The translations under genes were made by a program, and so were the position numbers. A stretch of DNA of 64,000 nucleotides from assembly GCA_045589955.1 (NCBI GenBank), contig JAZNQD010000009.1, forward strand, positions 184,876-248,875. The letters run 5' to 3'. The notes beneath the pieces are model-generated. The model searched no databases, was not told the origin of the DNA, and saw only the letters and a list, made by a program, of their open reading frames with translations. This DNA is from Bacilli bacterium (GTDB taxonomy: Bacteria > Bacillota_I > Bacilli_A > ML615J-28 > CAG-313). Positions 18,686-52,478 of the stretch are shown here, piece by piece. The number at the start of each line of letters is the position of its first letter. Within the stretch, counting starts at the first letter, position 1.

Positions 18686-18754
18686 GATATAAATTTTTTG
18701 TTTTATTTTTATGCATACTTCTTTATAATTAAAAAAATATTAGGAGATGATTTT

Positions 18755-20272
18755 ATGTTAAAGACTTTTATTTGTGAATATTGCGGAAAAGAATATCAAG
18801 CCGATCCAGATTTAGGAGTTTGGCAAAAAGATGATACACAGAAAAAAAGTCAAATTGGAGTTTCTTGTAAGAGATATTGCTGTTATAAATGCGGTAAAAA
18901 AGCTCGCGCAGAGAAAGTTTCAGCTCAATGGCAAAATAAATCTATAGATGAAGTAAATGCCGTTGTCAGTAAGCGAAAAAAGGCTGTTAAACCACGTATT
19001 TGTAAAGTGTGTGGTAAAGAGTTTATTCCAAATGGTCCAACAGGTAATGCAAAAGGCGTATATTTATGTTCAGACGAATGTAGAGAGAAACATTTTCGCT
19101 TAATTCCAGATAGCGGTATAAAGAAATGCCAAAATTGTGGTAAAGAGTATCATTATGAATCTGGTCAAGGTAGTTGGGATAAAGATAATAACCTAGTAAA
19201 AGTAAATGGATTAGGACATGAATTTGTAGTTAAAAGTCATAGATTCTGTTGCTATGAATGCGGAATTAAATATAAAGAAAGAAAAAGAAAAGTAAGTAAT
19301 ATTGTAAAATACGGTAGGGTTAGCCCATTTCAAGATACCGACTTTAGAAAAAACTTTATTGAAAAACAAAAAGAAAATGGTACATTGTTTGTATCTAAAG
19401 GCGAACAAGAAATAAAAGATTGGTTAGAATCATTAGGCGTAAAAACAGAACATTATATAACTGGAAATGGATTAAATGATAAAACACCCCGTATTGAAAT
19501 TGATATTTATATTCCAGATTTAAAAATAGGCATAGAATATAATGGTGTATACTATCATAGTGTAAATGGTATTAAAAAAGATAGAATAAATACAAGATAT
19601 CATTATAATAAAAGTAAATGGGCACAAGAAAATGGTATTGAATTAATTCATGTATGGGAAGATCAATGGCTTAATAAAAAAGAATTAGTAAAAAGCATTA
19701 TAAAAGCTAGACTCAACCTAATTGATAAGAAAGTTAATCGTATTTATGCCAGAAATTGCGAATTACGTGTATTATCAACTGAAAAATATCGAGAATTTTG
19801 TGAGTTGAACCATATTCAAGGCTATAAAAAAGCAAGTATTAAATTAGGCTTATTCTATAAAGATGAATTAGTACAAATTGCTTCTTTCGGAAAAGTAAAT
19901 AATAGAGGAAAAGCCGTTACCACTAATAAAAATTATGATTATGAATGGGTACGTGGCTGTCCTGCTTCATTAAGTTATGTCGTCGGTGGTACTTCTAAGC
20001 TATTTAAATATTTTATTAAGAATTATACGCCTTCTTCTGTATTATGTTATGCAGACTGGAATCTTTTTAATGGCAGAGGATATAAAGAATGCGGTTTTGA
20101 ATTAGCGGGATATACTGGACCAGATAAATTCTATGTAACCGCAGACCATCATTATATAAGAAAAGGACGAGATCCTTATAACTACAAAGAATTAATGAAT
20201 CTCGTCCAATCTAATAAACTTTGGCTTTGCTATGGAGCTGGCTCTATGCGTTTTGTTTGGAATAAAAGCTAA
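18755..20272 (+). mobile_element. Free-standing putative homing endonuclease (Zn-finger repeats plus PD-(D/E)xK/Vsr-like nuclease and C-terminal domain)
   Basis: Probable start is ATG 18755 after AGGAG. CxxC...CxxxC repeats and IEIDIYIPDLKIGIEYNGVYYH; oriented opposite to both neighbours. Confidence 0.7.
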
Positions 20273-24319: not shown

Positions 24320-25681
24320 TTATAAGGAGATGAGATTTTCGCCTTTTTCTAAAAAATCTAAATATGAAATGGCTGTTTTTTGTGCAGCATTGGAATATTG
24401 ATATAATGGAGTTTGTTGATAAGCTAATTGTGCGTTATATATAGCTCCCACTAAAGCATCTGCCATATCTTTTAATTCAGTTGTACGTGTTACCTTGTTT
24501 TTATCTAATACCAATGCTTCCAATTCTTTTTTAAGCTTAGGACAAATTCCAACTTTTACGTGTCCTAATTCAATTAAGCTAGAAGCATTAGTATACGGCT
24601 CTAATTTAGTATCAACAGACAATTTTTCAACTTTAGTAAAACAATTAGATGCTTCAAAAGTCTGTAACATAATTAAACTATTCCATTGGTCAGCCGAAAT
24701 TGTATGAATTGGAATATTTTTTTCTACTACTAAATCAATACATAGATTTTGAATAGCACGTACATCTATTTTATTTTTTGCATTAATAGCTAAAAGTAAA
24801 TCTATTATATAAACAGTCTCTTTTTCATGTGTTGTTTCGTTTATTTGCCATTCTTTGTGTAAAATACATAATGCTGCATCACATTGACCATTTGAACCAC
24901 CTCCAGCTAAATCAATATGACAAAATCTTTCTGCTTTAGGTGCTCTTTTGAATTGCCATTTACCATTTAAATTCTGTTCAAAGATATCTTTAGGAAGACA
25001 CTCTAATAAATTAACATTATCGTGTATATTAGCGTCCAAATATAATTCAGAAGTTAAAGTAGGATCTTCTAATCGAGTTGTATCTCTAAATACAGCATTA
25101 TTATCACTAGTTGTCATACCAGCAATATCTTGAATCGATTGGTCTAATTGCAATTCAAATTTACTTTTATATATCGTAGGTACTTGAATTAACTCACAAC
25201 CAGTAGGAGGATTATAATTACCTTCTTCAATAGCTTTTAATTCACCGGGGTCAGTTATTATTTTACTCGGAATACTACCATTACCTACCATCACAGGAAA
25301 TGTTGAACCATCACCCACGAAGTTAGGATCGGGTTTTACTTCCCAAAGCATAGGTTTTAACATAAGAATGCTAGGATCATCCATTGGTAAATGTCTAATG
25401 TATTCACCCATGGCACTATTCGTAGTACGGGCAGACGATACAACCGATTGAAATACTAAATCTGAGCCTTGGAAACGTGAACTAAATCTGTTGTCTAATG
25501 TGTTTAACAGTGAGATTGCTTCTTCTACTCCCTTTTCATTGATCTCATCACAGTTATGGGCATAAAGGGCTTGACCATTATCTAAGGCTATCATAAAATT
25601 ATGATCTTCACCTTCTACTTTTAAATCATATACTGGAGTAGGCTCATTTAATACTATTTTTTCTATTTTTTTAATCTTCAT
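24320..25681 (-). CDS. terL: Terminase large subunit, C-terminal part: Int-C (43 aa) plus C-extein (Walker B Asp-Glu and nuclease domain)
   Basis: MKIKKIEK...VYDLKVEGEDHNF...AHN then CDEINEK; HIDLAGG...D and KDMADAL RNase H-like motifs; GGGAGG RBS before ATG 25681. Confidence 0.85.
   Translation of the reverse strand: MKIKKIEKIVLNEPTPVYDLKVEGEDHNFMIALDNGQALYAHNCDEINEKGVEEAISLLNTLDNRFSSRFQGSDLVFQSVVSSARTTNSAMGEYIRHLPMDDPSILMLKPMLWEVKPDPNFVGDGSTFPVMVGNGSIPSKIITDPGELKAIEEGNYNPPTGCELIQVPTIYKSKFELQLDQSIQDIAGMTTSDNNAVFRDTTRLEDPTLTSELYLDANIHDNVNLLECLPKDIFEQNLNGKWQFKRAPKAERFCHIDLAGGGSNGQCDAALCILHKEWQINETTHEKETVYIIDLLLAINAKNKIDVRAIQNLCIDLVVEKNIPIHTISADQWNSLIMLQTFEASNCFTKVEKLSVDTKLEPYTNASSLIELGHVKVGICPKLKKELEALVLDKNKVTRTTELKDMADALVGAIYNAQLAYQQTPLYQYSNAAQKTAISYLDFLEKGENLISL
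25553..25681 (-). mobile_element. Split intein C-fragment (Int-C)
   Basis: Block F VYDLKVEGEDHNF, terminal His-Asn, +1 Cys. Confidence 0.85.
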
Positions 25682-26963
25682 AAATAAACTTCCTCCCAAA
25701 TCGTTCCTCTATATAAGATAAAAAAGCTTCTATGCCTCCAACTTTATTTATAATGGTTTTCCAAATTGGTTCGGTATTTGCCAAACGTGAGCCAGTTGAC
25801 CGATGTGAGTTAAAAATACTTTCGTTAATTATTATTCCATCTATTCTTTTCAATACATTCCAAGCTCTACCCATAGATTTTGCTAGGTTTGCTTCTTGTT
25901 TTTCTTTTTCTGTTTTTTTACTCCAACATAAAGCTTGACTTTTAGCTAATTTTAGACGACTTTCTTTTGAAGAAACTTTTGGAAACAAATGATTTAGTTC
26001 AGCAGTTCTTTTTCTGTGTTTTTCGGATTTATTATAAGCAATAATCTTTTTTCTAGCTATTTCTATACGTTCTGGAGTAGATGCCGCCTGCTTTTTTCGT
26101 TTTCGTACTTCCGCTTTATGTATTTCATTTACTAGCCAAACATAATATAAATTTTTTGCATCAGATAACCAATCAAGAGTCATTAAAATTTTCTGTTGAG
26201 ATTGCTTTAACTTTGTTTCACTAATTTTTTTACTTTTTCTTAAAATAATTTCAGCTGGAAGAAAAGGAGCTCCTTCTCCACCATCACTCAAATTTGCTAA
26301 AATACCCGATCCAGTGCTTCTTTTCCCATATTGTTGTATTAATTGCTTTTCTAGGGTATATGCTTCGTTTAAAGTTAGAGCTGTTTTTACAATTTTTATA
26401 TCTGGTGTAAAATTTCTAGATAGTATATCTCTAATAATACTTTTTTTGAGAATATTTGGGTCTTGTCGTAAGGCTTTGGCAGTAAAATGTGTTGCTGCAC
26501 GGCTATATTGTGTATTAAATATAGGTGAAATTGTATTGGAATGTGAACTTACCCCAACATAAAAAGGTAAGTTAAAGTTTTTTGAGTCAGGTCTATTATC
26601 AATTAACTCATATACATAGGCTTGGTTTTCAGATGCAATTTCATCGTCTTCTGTTAAATACTGCGCTTGTTTATATGCTACACCATTTTCATATATAATA
26701 TAGGGATCATCTAGCTTAGGATTACTAATAACAAAAGGATGATCTGGTGTACATGTAATGTATTTATTATCTTCATAATAAATTTTGATTAATTCTGTTA
26801 CTTTTCGTGTTTCTTGAACATCTAGAATCTTTACTTCTTTTTTTATTCCATTTCTATCAACACTGTATGTTTTAAAATTAATTCCATTTTTAAATTGACG
26901 TAATAGACTCGCAAATGTAATTATTCCATGATTTGTATAAACTTTTGTATCACCAGTAAAACA
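25671..26963 (-). mobile_element. Intein N-fragment with fused GIY-YIG (LEM-3-like) homing endonuclease
   Basis: Cys1 codon at 26963-26961; VYELID...PFYVG...R...H...E..LI..YG...G.LANLSDGGEG at about 26621-26271. Confidence 0.8.
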
Positions 26964-27740
26964 AAATGAGTTTACAACGTTATAACCAGTGAAGTGGCCT
27001 TGATTACTACCACAAGTAATAATTATGTTATCTGGAAAATAAATATTGCCTGTACTTTTTTCACAAACAAATGGAATAGGACAATTTGGATTAGTGAGAT
27101 CGAAATTTTCAAAAGATCGTTGTGACATAACTCTTTGAAAACAAGGCATACTTTCCATTAATTTAACGAAAGGTAAAATATTTGTTTCATAAACTTGTTT
27201 CAAAGTCATTGATATTACTACATTTGCTATTGTAGCATCTTGGTCAATGTTAAAAACAGATCTGGGATATCTTAAGCATAAAATTCTATATAATGCATAT
27301 ACAAAAGCCTTGCGTGCTACAGTACTTTTTCCAGATCCAATACATCCGCTAAATATAACTTTACGGATAGGAGAGCCTTCTTTAAATATTTGATTTAATT
27401 GAGTTTTCCAAAAGTCATAGAGTGTTGCATTTGAATAACCCATAAAAAACTTATTTGATAAAAATTCTTCAATTGATGGTACAGGTCTTTTATATAATAT
27501 TATATCTGTTTGCTCAATAAATGAGTCATCTTGATTAGTCAAAGTTAAATATAAGCTAACGCGTTGATATATTTCAGGCTTTGCTTTTAATACATCGGGT
27601 AAATAATTTTCTTTATAATAATTAAAAATATCTGTAAAATCTAAAGAAGTAATAATTTTTTGAAATTCATCAGTTATATCAAATTGAACTACAGGTAAAT
27701 TCTCTAATTTTTGTGCAATGTCAAGAGGCAGTTGCTCCAT
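25671..27740 (-). CDS. terL: Terminase large subunit, N-terminal part: N-extein (259 aa, Walker A) plus Int-N plus GIY-YIG endonuclease
   Basis: FSGCIGSGKST Walker A; VVNSF then CFTGDT intein block A; ITCTPDHPF block B; ends with TAA at 25671. Confidence 0.85.
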   Translation of the reverse strand: MEQLPLDIAQKLENLPVVQFDITDEFQKIITSLDFTDIFNYYKENYLPDVLKAKPEIYQRVSLYLTLTNQDDSFIEQTDIILYKRPVPSIEEFLSNKFFMGYSNATLYDFWKTQLNQIFKEGSPIRKVIFSGCIGSGKSTVARKAFVYALYRILCLRYPRSVFNIDQDATIANVVISMTLKQVYETNILPFVKLMESMPCFQRVMSQRSFENFDLTNPNCPIPFVCEKSTGNIYFPDNIIITCGSNQGHFTGYNVVNSFCFTGDTKVYTNHGIITFASLLRQFKNGINFKTYSVDRNGIKKEVKILDVQETRKVTELIKIYYEDNKYITCTPDHPFVISNPKLDDPYIIYENGVAYKQAQYLTEDDEIASENQAYVYELIDNRPDSKNFNLPFYVGVSSHSNTISPIFNTQYSRAATHFTAKALRQDPNILKKSIIRDILSRNFTPDIKIVKTALTLNEAYTLEKQLIQQYGKRSTGSGILANLSDGGEGAPFLPAEIILRKSKKISETKLKQSQQKILMTLDWLSDAKNLYYVWLVNEIHKAEVRKRKKQAASTPERIEIARKKIIAYNKSEKHRKRTAELNHLFPKVSSKESRLKLAKSQALCWSKKTEKEKQEANLAKSMGRAWNVLKRIDGIIINESIFNSHRSTGSRLANTEPIWKTIINKVGGIEAFLSYIEERFGRKFIYED

Positions 27741-29243: not shown

Positions 29244-29521
29244 TCAAATATCTTAAAGTCTGGTCCTTCTTCACAAATTTTTCTAATTAATTTAATATCA
29301 GATTTACCAATTAGTGAAATAAGACCTTGTATATCATTTTCTAATTTTAAACGATTTTTTTCATTTAAACTAAGCTTTCCAAAAAGAGTTTGTGAATTTC
29401 CATCAATTAAAACCTCTTGAAGACACCAAGTTAAATATGAATATAATACCATAGCTACTTTATACTCAGGTAATTCAGTGTCTTCAGCAATAGTTTTAAT
29501 TTTAGAGTAATTACTGCTCAT
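29240..29521 (-). CDS. HU/IHF-like DNA-binding protein (divergent)
   Basis: IAEDTELPEYKVAMVLYSYL...VLIDGNSQTLFGKLSL follows the HU helix-helix-FG pattern. Confidence 0.4.
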   Translation of the reverse strand: MSSNYSKIKTIAEDTELPEYKVAMVLYSYLTWCLQEVLIDGNSQTLFGKLSLNEKNRLKLENDIQGLISLIGKSDIKLIRKICEEGPDFKIFE

Positions 29522-31982: not shown

Positions 31983-32567
31983 ATGTTGGGATTTCCTGGA
32001 GTTATACATAGAGATAAAAACGGTAATGAAAGAATGATTGATTTACCCACACGTTTGCTCTGTGATAGAATTGTTATGGTAACAGGTGAAGTAACAGATG
32101 AATTAGCAGAGTCAGTTGTAGCACAATTACTTTACTTAGAGTCAGTTGATAAAGATAAACCAATTAATATGTTTGTTATGGGACCAGGTGGAGTAGTTAC
32201 TGCTGGATTTGCAATTATTTCTACAATGAATACTATTAAATGTCCAGTATATACTACTATTATAGGTCAAGTTGCTAGTATGTCATCCGTTATTGCAGCA
32301 TCTGGTGAAAAAGGTCATAGAAAAATTTATCCATTATCACGAGTAATGTTACATCAAGTATCTGGTGGTTATAGAGGTAATGTTCAAGATGCTAGAGTTA
32401 ATTATAAAGAAATGGAAAGAATTAATGATTTAGCAATGGAACATTTGGCAAAATGTTGTGGAAAAGATTTAGAAACATTAAAAGCAGATTGTGAAAGAGA
32501 CGCTTGGTTTTCTTCTGAAGAAATAGTTGCCTATGGTATGGTTGACAAAATAACTGAGCCAAGATAA
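31983..32567 (+). CDS. clpP: ATP-dependent Clp protease proteolytic subunit
   Basis: SVVAQLLYLE, GQVASM (catalytic Ser), MLHQ (His), ERD (Asp). Confidence 0.92.
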   Translation: MLGFPGVIHRDKNGNERMIDLPTRLLCDRIVMVTGEVTDELAESVVAQLLYLESVDKDKPINMFVMGPGGVVTAGFAIISTMNTIKCPVYTTIIGQVASMSSVIAASGEKGHRKIYPLSRVMLHQVSGGYRGNVQDARVNYKEMERINDLAMEHLAKCCGKDLETLKADCERDAWFSSEEIVAYGMVDKITEPR

Positions 32568-51863: not shown

Positions 51864-52478
51864 TTATTGTTTTTCAAGAGTTATTTTTATACCATTCATG
51901 TTAATAACTACTGCATCCTCGTTAGTAACTTTGTTGGTAACTTTATTTTCGGCCTTTTCTTTTTCAATAGTAGTATTCTCTAGTAGCCCTTTTAATTGTT
52001 TACCGGTAATATCCCATCCCCAACTTCCCGCTAAGATAGTATAAATGATTTTATCGAGTTCAGGATCTAATCTATATTTGACCAATAAACTTTGAGGTTT
52101 TTCTTCACTATTAAGCGGAATATTGTTACTAAAATTAATTTGACCAGAAAAATCTTTATATATTAACCAATTTACTTTTTCAGTATCAAGTAGTAGCTTT
52201 AATTCTTCTTCTAAACGCGAAGTTATATTATTTTGCTCGACAACAAGAGTTAAATATTTACCTATAGCAAAAGGTGTATTCATATGAGCTTCAAAAGCCG
52301 GTACAACTTGAATATCATGTACCTTACAAAATTTATCTACAACCTCTTTATCAAGTACAGTCAAACTGTTCAAGTCTGAAAGGTTTGGCTCGATTTTTTG
52401 TATTTCTGCAATTACTTCATATACAGTTTCTTTTAACTCTGGATCCATAATTGAATCGAATTCGTTATCTGACATCAT
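51864..52478 (-). CDS. Hypothetical protein
   Basis: Start moved to ATG 52478/52475 (AAGGA RBS). Confidence 0.5.
   Translation of the reverse strand: MMSDNEFDSIMDPELKETVYEVIAEIQKIEPNLSDLNSLTVLDKEVVDKFCKVHDIQVVPAFEAHMNTPFAIGKYLTLVVEQNNITSRLEEELKLLLDTEKVNWLIYKDFSGQINFSNNIPLNSEEKPQSLLVKYRLDPELDKIIYTILAGSWGWDITGKQLKGLLENTTIEKEKAENKVTNKVTNEDAVVINMNGIKITLEKQ

Follow-up and report, generated by a model that had tools for sequence, protein, structure and literature searches.

We describe here an interrupted gene for the large terminase subunit (TerL) in a 64,000-nucleotide (nt) stretch of DNA, hereafter referred to as the window, which corresponds to positions 184,876 to 248,875 of contig JAZNQD010000009.1 in the assembly GCA_045589955.1 (Bacilli bacterium). 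The gene is divided between two overlapping open reading frames (ORFs), and we consider it likely that it is broken within the Walker B motif by a mobile, naturally split class-1 intein, in which the N-terminal intein half (Int-N) is extended at its C terminus by a GIY-YIG homing endonuclease translated in the same frame. The two-ORF fractured gene is real. The interpretation given in an earlier reading of the letters alone (the sequence-only reading) is essentially right, and it does not amount to a new principle.

Organization of the two reading frames

Both frames are located on the minus strand. The first of them, ORF-N (27740-25671), encodes 689 amino acids (aa), which comprise in this order 259 aa of TerL, an Int-N of 112 aa, the GIY-YIG nuclease and a basic helical tail, and it ends with ...FGRKFIYED and a TAA stop codon. 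The second, ORF-C (25681-24320), encodes 453 aa overall, consisting of the C-terminal intein half (Int-C, 43 aa) and 410 aa of TerL. The ATG of ORF-C at 25681 is in the +1 frame relative to ORF-N and lies 8 nt before its stop codon, the overlap between the two frames being 11 nt (ATGAAGATTAA). A GGGAGG motif is present at 25697-25692, 10 nt 5' of the ATG, and the last codons of ORF-N (..FGRKFIYED) double as the ribosome binding site (RBS) and start codon of ORF-C. The whole element is 1411 nt long (26963-25553), which is 1 modulo 3, so that its excision puts both extein frames in register; in silico fusion of ORF-N up to residue 259 with ORF-C from residue 44 onwards yields a protein of 669 aa, the approximate size that the sequence-only reading had given for the spliced TerL. 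The match of anatomy and exact excision is far beyond chance. The positions of the ORFs, the Cys260 of the CFTGDT motif, the TxxH motif, Walker A, the GGGAGG motif and the 11-nt overlap, all of which had been named in that reading, were found to hold at every coordinate checked. The segments of the two frames are as follows.

26964..27740, minus strand: N-extein, TerL residues 1-259, ending with ...VVNSF just before the Asp-Glu of Walker B; colinear with intein-less homologues of 669 aa
26628..26963, minus strand: Int-N, ORF-N residues 260-371, with Cys1 (CFTGDT), block B (TPDH) and an acidic end (...YLTEDDEIASE); predicted from the alignment, Foldseek and a weak Pfam match
26271..26627, minus strand: GIY-YIG nuclease domain, ORF-N residues ~372-490, in frame with Int-N; predicted from the alignment, phmmer, Pfam and a fold match
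25674..26270, minus strand: basic helical nuclease tail, ORF-N residues 491-689, presumed to bind DNA; predicted from the AF2 model and a charge count
25671..25673, minus strand: stop codon TAA of ORF-N, 8 nt 3' of the ATG of ORF-C
25692..25697, minus strand: RBS of ORF-C, GGGAGG, conserved in relatives
25553..25681, minus strand: Int-C, ORF-C residues 1-43, with a basic head (MKIKKIEKI), block F (VYDLKVEGEDHNF) and block G (..YAHN); conserved in the partner ORFs examined
24320..25552, minus strand: C-extein, 410 aa plus stop, with Cys at +1 and the DE of Walker B (CDEINE...), then the remainder of the ATPase domain and the RNase-H-like nuclease domain

The full sequence of Int-C (ORF-C residues 1-43) is MKIKKIEKIVLNEPTPVYDLKVEGEDHNFMIALDNGQALYAHN, and the residues that follow are CDEINE. 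The start of the nuclease domain has no in-frame ATG, promoter- and terminator-like sites that could serve for internal expression of the nuclease or ORF-C were not commoner than in shuffled sequence, and no stable RNA fold was predicted at the junction (z = -0.05).

Overlaps of 11 nt of the type ATGnnnnnTAA/TGA were observed in six gene pairs within the 64 kb (25681, 29521, 43259, 52475, 54754 and 57847). Thus, the recurrence of this geometry at 29521, 43259, 54754 and 57847, pointed out in the sequence-only reading, is confirmed, with one more case at 52475. The pattern suggests that the 11-nt overlap may be a preferred translational-coupling geometry of the phage.

The exteins form one large terminase

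The interrupted host protein is a large terminase, in agreement with the sequence-only reading. The virtual spliced protein is 83-87% identical to uninterrupted homologues of 669 aa over 100% of the length, and 304 relatives were identified on contigs of up to 285 kb. Walker A (GCIGSGKST) is located at ORF-N residues 132-140 (27347-27321), while Walker B (VVNSF-CDE) contains the insertion site (NSF/CDE, where the slash marks the break) and is restored by virtual splicing; both motifs are conserved in the family.

Sequence searches against the PDB, performed with phmmer for ORF-N and for the intein-less homologue P0001 and with a profile of the TerL alignment, yielded nothing useful, and the TerL identity was therefore taken from fold comparison and tblastn. 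In the AlphaFold model of P0001, the C-terminal domain is confident and the ATPase domain poorly modelled. The top 18 PDB fold matches to this model are all large terminases (HK97, G20c, T4 gp17, P22, D6E, P74-26 and HCMV UL89), with probabilities of 0.99-1.0. The best tblastn match is the terminase large subunit of the Xanthomonas phage phiXF1 (33.6% identity, 86% of the query, E 5e-87), and annotated terminase large subunits are found among the 193 matching records. The family is distant from known relatives: identity to any cultured phage TerL is at most 34% in tblastn, and the PHROG and Pfam profile libraries barely recognise it, with weak matches only. Likewise, a near-identity DNA search of GenBank phages gave no close relative of the phage in the window. 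A look-up of the exact ORF-N sequence returned no record, and the near-identical P0121 and P0122 were used in its place.

The insert resembles a canonically split class-1 intein

The placement of a split intein in Walker B, as proposed in the sequence-only reading, is borne out by the conserved blocks and by the alignment with a contiguous mini-intein. In an alignment of 29 sequences, consisting of ORF-N of the window and 28 homologues down to 40% identity, Cys260 at intein position 1 (CFTGDTKVYT) is invariant, as are T331 and H334 of block B (T331-P-D-H334). At the other end, the window has the block F Asp and HNF followed by ...YAHN/C, whereas relatives have HN/C, HN/T or KN/C. Every intein-bearing allele seen (11/11) has the terminal Asn followed by Cys or Thr at +1, while the +1 position in 24 intein-less alleles is occupied by C (18), L (3), T (1), M (1) or V (1). 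The contrast between bearing and intein-less alleles is in the expected direction, with numbers too small for significance.

Two relatives, P0033 and P0091, contain a contiguous mini-intein exactly at NSF/CDE. Each residue of the P0033 mini-intein has a counterpart in Int-N or Int-C of the window, apart from an 8-residue linker (KRNKDLHT) that takes the place of the nuclease, stop and start. The alignment with P0033 places the split point in this linker, between blocks B/N4 and F. Int-C begins with Met (ATG) in all split forms, the corresponding residue in the contiguous P0033 being Thr (ACG). Furthermore, the net charge is -6 for the last 30 aa of Int-N and +3 for the first 12 aa of Int-C, and complementary charges of the halves have been described for other split inteins (PMC2677866). 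In Foldseek, the model of ORF-N best matches chains of the split DnaE intein from Npu (4qfq_A, E 3e-4, probability 1.0), yet the TM-scores are low and the rmsd is high, because the query represents the N half only and the confidence of the model is moderate. Taken at the level of residues and alignments, these data support the prediction that the insert is a class-1 intein in Walker B, split at the canonical endonuclease-insertion point.

The nuclease and its basic tail

The residues expected for the GIY-YIG motif, namely Y377 (YVY), Y394 and G396 (PFYVG), R414, H418, E464 and N483, are invariant in the 29 sequences, and so are G487 and G488. An exhaustive phmmer search with the nuclease and tail recovered 816 proteins at E <1e-3, the majority of which are free-standing and 200-350 aa long, with matches to free-standing GIY-YIG endonucleases at E 1e-11 to 1e-9. 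Among the free-standing proteins that were tested, three (P0168, P0171 and P0174) are above the Pfam cut-off for LEM-3_GIY-YIG and also match NUMOD3. Within the nuclease family, PF22945 was matched in 9/17 and PF01541 in 6/17 proteins, with E-values of 2e-4 or weaker and below the curated score. The homology to GIY-YIG enzymes is thus transitive, since phmmer reaches proteins above the Pfam cut-off. Free-standing versions of the same enzyme were also identified (P0150, P0151, P0162 and P0164).

The nuclease domain was modelled with a pLDDT of 74-86 and matches PD-T4-3 in Foldseek (9u75_A, 9u7u and 9u7z; probability 1.0, rmsd 3.6-4.0 A over 102-107 columns), which is also its best PDB profile match (E 0.075). 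The tail (ORF-N 491-689) has a net charge of +21 and is all-helical in the AF2 model (pLDDT 74-91). It matched no family and no NUMOD model in Pfam, and its motif YNKSEKHRK recurs in the HNH endonuclease inteins found in this TerL family. A match to the PHROG category 'tail fiber' (E 0.0016) was dismissed as compositional, due to the lysine-rich helical region. On the whole, the homology searches and the predicted structures support a divergent GIY-YIG enzyme, fused in frame to Int-N and with a helical tail, as the sequence-only reading had suggested.

The split is conserved and under purifying selection

Searches with the intein and nuclease recovered ~28 protein clusters with the same split in independent assemblies from ENA, Logan and JGI, which are 40-96% identical to the query and span it entirely. 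The N-halves are 689, 693, 622-628 or 681 aa long, all of them end with ...F(I/V)YE(N/D/I), and read-through was seen in none; the stop codon is at the same place or at most 9 nt away in 28/28 homologues. Among ten split-form loci examined at the TerL site, an overlapping Int-C ORF with conserved RBS and ATG is present in 10/10. In the two-ORF loci that were fetched, the second ORF is 453-457 aa long, starts with MK(I/F)KKIE and overlaps the first by 11 or 20 nt. The sequence (A/G)GGAG-TTTAT(T/C)TATGAA is conserved in L001, L003, L005, L007, L008, L010 and L015. The N-halves with a partner Int-C ORF and conserved RBS and ATG include the following.

L001: N-half P0144
L003: N-half P0149
L007: N-half P0121
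L008/L009: N-half P0122
L010/L011: N-half P0123
L015: N-half P0137

Overall, the overlap is variable in length (11, 20 or 25 nt) while the ATG is constant. A slightly variable stop and a fixed start are to be expected of initiation, independent or coupled, and not of a frameshift site. The sequence-only reading had set its prediction against a one-base assembly error and against a family of uniformly contiguous homologues; neither was found, because the split is evolutionarily conserved.

Every segment is under purifying selection, with dN/dS values far below 1. In pairwise comparisons of the window with L007, L008 and L010, dN/dS was 0.13-0.28 for Int-N, 0.03-0.25 for the GIY-YIG domain, 0.12-0.20 for the tail and 0.10-0.21 for Int-C. 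The value for the C-extein against L010 was disregarded because a length difference of 3 codons had not been allowed for.

Other states of the insertion site and signs of mobility

The same TerL site is also found as a classic fractured gene with three ORFs (L004-L006). The first ORF, which encodes the N-extein and Int-N, is 372 aa long in L005/L006 and 342 aa as called in L004, and ends with ...ELYDTK and a stop codon. It is followed by a nuclease ORF of 261 aa (MIQNSHYIYGLFD...) in the +1 frame with a 14-nt overlap, and then by the ORF for Int-C and the C-extein. At the corresponding position, the fused subfamily of 625 aa reads ...ELYDSNTFYVYGLY..., and the two-ORF and three-ORF forms thus differ by a small indel. 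The fused form was probably derived from a three-ORF fractured gene via a small indel in the linker between Int-N and the endonuclease.

An empty site is present in L012 (the contig of P0001), which lacks exactly the 1411 nt; its identity to the window amounts to 95-99% at 34900-27960 and 25300-22100. The N-extein and intein of the window are 93-97% identical to L008, whereas the C-extein and downstream region resemble L012 (93-100%) and are only 58-88% identical to L008. The mosaic identities indicate that the history of the element differs from that of the downstream backbone, as homing would produce.

Three further observations were made in these comparisons. A 579-nt insertion in L012 (L012:7363-8019) is located immediately 5' of terL, overlaps the start of this gene and contains a free-standing gene of 218 aa with a NUMOD3 match, which is absent from the window at ~27789. 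Based on this match, the gene is probably another homing endonuclease, and such a second endonuclease may have remodelled terL in L012. Secondly, the first ~120 nt of the C-extein (window 25544-25425) are divergent, with identities of 0.70 between the window and L012, 0.82 between the window and L008, and 0.74 between L012 and L008, while the next 240 nt are 0.93-0.97 identical among the same three genomes. The divergent segment could be an evolving target or cleavage site of the endonuclease, or it could reflect short co-conversion tracts. Finally, identity to L012 drops to 0.60-0.73 in the window at 32700-32360, with a 58-nt indel and flanks of 91-99%. The ORF at 31983-32567, which is ClpP judging by synteny with L012, is affected at its 3' end, together with the spacer preceding a RecA-like gene; this is another possible recombination hot spot.

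Related designs and inteins in the family

The two-ORF design is also present outside the terminase. At L014:3001-6203, the Walker A motif of a SbcC/Rad50-like ATPase is broken (SSGNG/C...) in the same manner: the N-half of 443 aa starts with an N-extein of 44 aa and continues with Int-N, a GIY-YIG domain resembling SegE and a tail, and the C-half starts with MRVIKKQ...FVHN/SGKSS, overlaps by 25 nt and restores GNG-SGKS. Another N-half with Int-N and a GIY-YIG domain is P0158 (468 aa), which was linked through PF01541 and has an N-extein ending with ..CPTG/C. It looks like the same two-ORF design, the ..CPTG motif resembling a helicase-type Walker A. In P0160 (705 aa, JGI), a contiguous intein with the GIY-YIG domain in frame is located in another protein.

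At least five insertion sites make the TerL family a hot spot for inteins (P0014-P0018, P0035, P0040, P0043, P0047, P0066 and P0091).

Site 1: Walker A, GCIG/C...HN/SGKST, with mini- and HNH inteins
Site 2: P-loop, with a LAGLIDADG intein (P0066)
Site 3: Walker B, NSF/CDE
Site 4: nuclease domain, RYC/...N/CHIDL (P0018)
Site 5: ELKDM/C...HN/CDAL (P0047)

Two proteins, P0091 and P0163, have two inteins each; in P0163, which is a TerL N-half, the split intein is accompanied by an HNH intein in Walker A. A deviating arrangement was observed at L015:164-3395 (P0137), where the C-half is a normal TerL Int-C and C-extein, and the 622-aa N-half carries a foreign N-extein of 185 aa. The latter resembles the nuclease domain of another terminase (phrog_2699, E 5.6e-5), and the first half of Int-N differs too. 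This locus is either a chimeric 3.5-kb assembly or the result of ectopic recombination between inteins.

Proposed mechanism and alternative explanations

We infer trans-splicing, homing and release of the nuclease from the sequences, the first of these because the catalytic residues are conserved, the host gene is essential and every segment shows purifying selection. For natural split inteins in TerL, trans-splicing has been shown experimentally (PMC11766414). In the proposed mechanism, a single late mRNA would be translated into an N-precursor of 689 aa and, by coupled initiation at the ATG located 8 nt before the stop of ORF-N, into a C-precursor of 453 aa. Int-N, through its acidic end, would capture the basic head of Int-C electrostatically, and the two would fold as a Hint domain. 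Class-1 splicing would then proceed by an acyl shift at Cys260, transfer to Cys+1 and cyclisation of Asn43, whereby ...VVNSF would be joined to CDEINE... to give an active TerL of 669 aa. The by-product would be a protein of 430 aa (Int-N, GIY-YIG domain and tail) bound to the 43-aa Int-C. This protein, or the precursor, might cut the intein-less terL genes of co-infecting relatives near the insertion site, and repair from the intein-bearing allele would copy the element together with flanking extein sequence.

Several observations weigh against this interpretation. The Pfam Intein_splicing profile scores 17.9 bits on ORF-N of the window, which is below the gathering score of 35.8; a sub-threshold score is expected because Int-N is half a domain, and the profile was passed by the homologues P0137 (38.3) and P0163 (77.9, mostly due to its other intein). 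The AF2 model of ORF-N has a moderate mean pLDDT of 63.5, and the nuclease domain of the window has itself no Pfam GIY-YIG match. Furthermore, a bulky domain of 318 aa right after the Int-N strand might slow the association of the halves. As for mobility, the mosaic also fits ordinary phage recombination, or co-conversion by the free-standing endonuclease gene of L012. In addition, the N-extein of L012 is the outlier of the three genomes, with identities of 61-82% to the window and L008 and flanks of 87-98%. We considered the low identity between the N-exteins of the window and L012 as a co-conversion tract of this intein and rejected it; this part of the mosaic cannot be attributed to the intein because L012 is the outlier in the three-way comparison and has its own endonuclease gene at the start of terL.

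One alternative is that the intein splices and the GIY-YIG domain is dead or domesticated, the element being vertically inherited and immobile. The domain falls below every Pfam GIY-YIG threshold, and the homing cycle predicts that endonucleases decay after fixation (10.1101/2025.01.02.630785). We nevertheless judge this scenario improbable. The expected catalytic residues are invariant down to 40% identity, dN/dS is low in both the nuclease domain and the tail (0.03-0.25 and 0.12-0.20), and the element is absent from a genome that is 95-99% identical. The affinity of the element is to L008, and differs from that of the downstream backbone, which is to L012. Moreover, the family includes empty, mini-intein, three-ORF and two-ORF states side by side.

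We also considered the possibility that the fusion, instead of being a neutral intermediate only, is a selected regulatory design that couples the nuclease to splicing. For example, the nuclease could be inactive or mis-targeted until trans-splicing licenses it, or DNA binding by the tail could modulate the association of the halves, so that terminase maturation and homing would coincide in late infection. We attach only a small likelihood to this idea; if it is true, the TerL site would also provide a complete natural series of the evolution of an intein (empty, mini-intein, three ORFs, two fused ORFs and, elsewhere in P0160, a contiguous GIY-YIG intein), which would directly support the capture of free-standing endonuclease genes by inteins.

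A further hypothesis is that no covalent splicing occurs and that the intein halves serve as a high-affinity dimerisation module holding two TerL fragments together. There is a precedent in the NrdA of phage Aeh1, a gene fragmented by a mobile endonuclease whose products assemble functionally without splicing (PMC3045599). In TerL the break is located two residues before the Asp-Glu of Walker B, within a beta-strand of the ATPase core, where a retained Hint domain of 112 + 43 aa would be very disruptive. All residues that matter for the chemistry alone are conserved, namely Cys1, the TxxH motif, the Asn at the end of the intein and the Cys or Thr at +1, and the homologous contiguous mini-intein in P0033 must splice to yield TerL. 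Retention without splicing is thus unlikely.

Programmed recoding, in which a +1 ribosomal frameshift or stop bypass would produce a contiguous precursor for cis-splicing and the two ORFs would be apparent only, is very unlikely. The ORFs do overlap, with the Shine-Dalgarno-like (SD-like) GGGAGG 5' of the ORF-N stop, and recoding is generally known in phages. However, relatives differ in overlap length (11, 20 and 25 nt) and stop position, but share the ATG and RBS. A conserved slippery motif is missing, the distance of ~18 nt between SD and stop is unlike the prfB type, and the junction RNA is without stable structure. The five further 11-nt overlaps between unrelated gene pairs of the window argue for ordinary translational coupling.

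An assembly or sequencing frameshift in a single contiguous precursor with a full-length, cis-splicing GIY-YIG intein can be set aside as extremely improbable: a single +1 shift between 25708 and 25674 would join both frames, and there is one case of a GIY-YIG domain lying in frame within a contiguous intein (P0160), but the ~28 clusters from three sources stop at the same place without read-through, the second ORF overlaps with a conserved RBS and ATG in every split-form locus examined, and no homopolymer of more than 3 nt is present where the frameshift would have to lie.

Comparison with known systems

The trans-splicing intein with an attached homing endonuclease, which we favor, has its closest parallels in fractured genes. 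Split inteins with a free-standing GIY-YIG or Vsr-like endonuclease gene between the halves were described in 2009, one terminase locus included (PMC2677866), and the AceL NrdHF gene is a later example with a GIY-YIG gene (PMC7891396). Like the fractured genes of Dassa et al. 2009 (gp41-1, NrdJ-1, IMPDH-1 and others; PMC2677866) and AceL NrdHF (PMC7891396), the element of the window is located in a phage-type essential gene and has a canonical break point. It also shares with them an endonuclease encoded between the halves on one strand, an Int-C ORF that overlaps the preceding ORF and complementary charges. The difference is that the endonuclease of the fractured genes is its own ORF, preceded by a stop codon and a non-coding stretch of 27-51 nt that may form hairpins, whereas the nuclease of the window has neither a preceding stop nor a start of its own. 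It is an in-frame extension of Int-N, giving two ORFs rather than three, and a stop between Int-N and the nuclease is absent from the window and the 28 homologues. The nuclease ORF in L004-L006 is separate, yet it has a 14-nt overlap instead of a non-coding gap.

Natural split inteins in phage large terminases are also known from metagenomes, GOS-TerL and AceL-TerL (PMC11766414; terminase locus PMC2677866). These are atypically split (Int-N of 25-37 aa, Int-C of 104-115 aa) and reside in T4-gp17-like terminases. The intein of the window has the canonical 112 + 43 aa, its site is in Walker B of a distant TerL family, and a nuclease is fused to Int-N.

The inteins of Npu and Ssp DnaE are the best structural matches of Int-N (4qfq_A and 4lx3_A), and they likewise belong to class 1, with Cys1 and Cys+1 and the same split position. 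Presumably, Npu DnaE also has in common with the intein of the window that Int-N ends acidic, that Int-C starts basic and that block F follows the pattern VYD..V...HNF. Unlike in the window, the DnaE halves are encoded at distant loci and without an endonuclease; the identity is low, at 18-25% in the Foldseek alignments.

The nuclease itself is comparable to modular phage GIY-YIG enzymes of the I-TevI/Seg type in having an N-terminal catalytic domain of ~100 aa and a long basic DNA-binding region, which is predicted in the present case. The enzymes of this type are free-standing or intron-encoded and have NUMOD modules, whereas the enzyme of the window would stay covalently linked to one half of an intein and to 259 residues of TerL until splicing takes place, with a tail that lies outside the Pfam NUMOD models. 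Contiguous inteins of the same TerL family are different again: P0033 is without a nuclease, P0091 has a mini-intein, and HNH and LAGLIDADG inteins occur at other sites.

Finally, terminase inteins in which the endonuclease is not the standard in-frame LAGLIDADG enzyme have been described in actinobacteriophages (Gosselin et al., 10.1101/2025.01.02.630785). These inteins are contiguous with out-of-frame or antisense Endo VII-like, Vsr-like or LAGLIDADG endonucleases, and not GIY-YIG enzymes on a split Int-N. It has been proposed that free-standing endonuclease genes enter the intein and that indels of 1-2 bp later bring them into frame (10.1101/2025.01.02.630785). The pair of three-ORF and two-ORF forms observed here fits this indel model.

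The architecture was called unusual in the sequence-only reading, and this holds for one of its parts. Split inteins in TerL and GIY-YIG fractured genes have been published (PMC2677866, PMC7891396, PMC11766414), and the fused two-ORF form is common in the phage group (~28 clusters) and recurs in the SbcC-like gene of L014. Only the in-frame fusion of Int-N and nuclease seems to be undescribed. A GIY-YIG enzyme fused in frame to the Int-N of a split intein was not described in the full-text literature searched, a collection outside of which most subscription papers fall, and this represents absence of evidence only.

Implications

A single site of an essential phage gene is thus present in four coexisting states, empty, with a contiguous mini-intein, as three ORFs and as two fused ORFs, while a fifth state, the contiguous GIY-YIG intein, is found in another protein (P0160). 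These natural alleles make testable the much-debated question of how inteins acquire homing endonucleases, the proposed route being that a free-standing gene invades first and is fused in frame later. If the proposed mechanism is correct, DNA packaging is predicted to depend on protein trans-splicing in widespread, uncultured, AT-rich large phages (contigs to ~285 kb). Furthermore, the family comprises diverged, canonically split pairs of 112 + 43 aa with Cys1/Cys+1 or Cys1/Thr+1, which are candidate orthogonal ligation tools, and it also offers a GIY-YIG endonuclease with a large uncharacterised tail that is presumed to bind DNA.

Other genes in the window

Further products encoded in the window are NrdD, two ligases (an NAD-dependent DNA ligase and an RNA ligase) and a protein containing an M15 peptidase domain, and genes for RecA, ClpP and SHMT were called in the syntenic contig L012. 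Within a long block of structural genes on the minus strand, an ORF of 524 aa with a TTG start is located on the plus strand (18698-20272). It has no Pfam match and may be a moron or another mobile gene.

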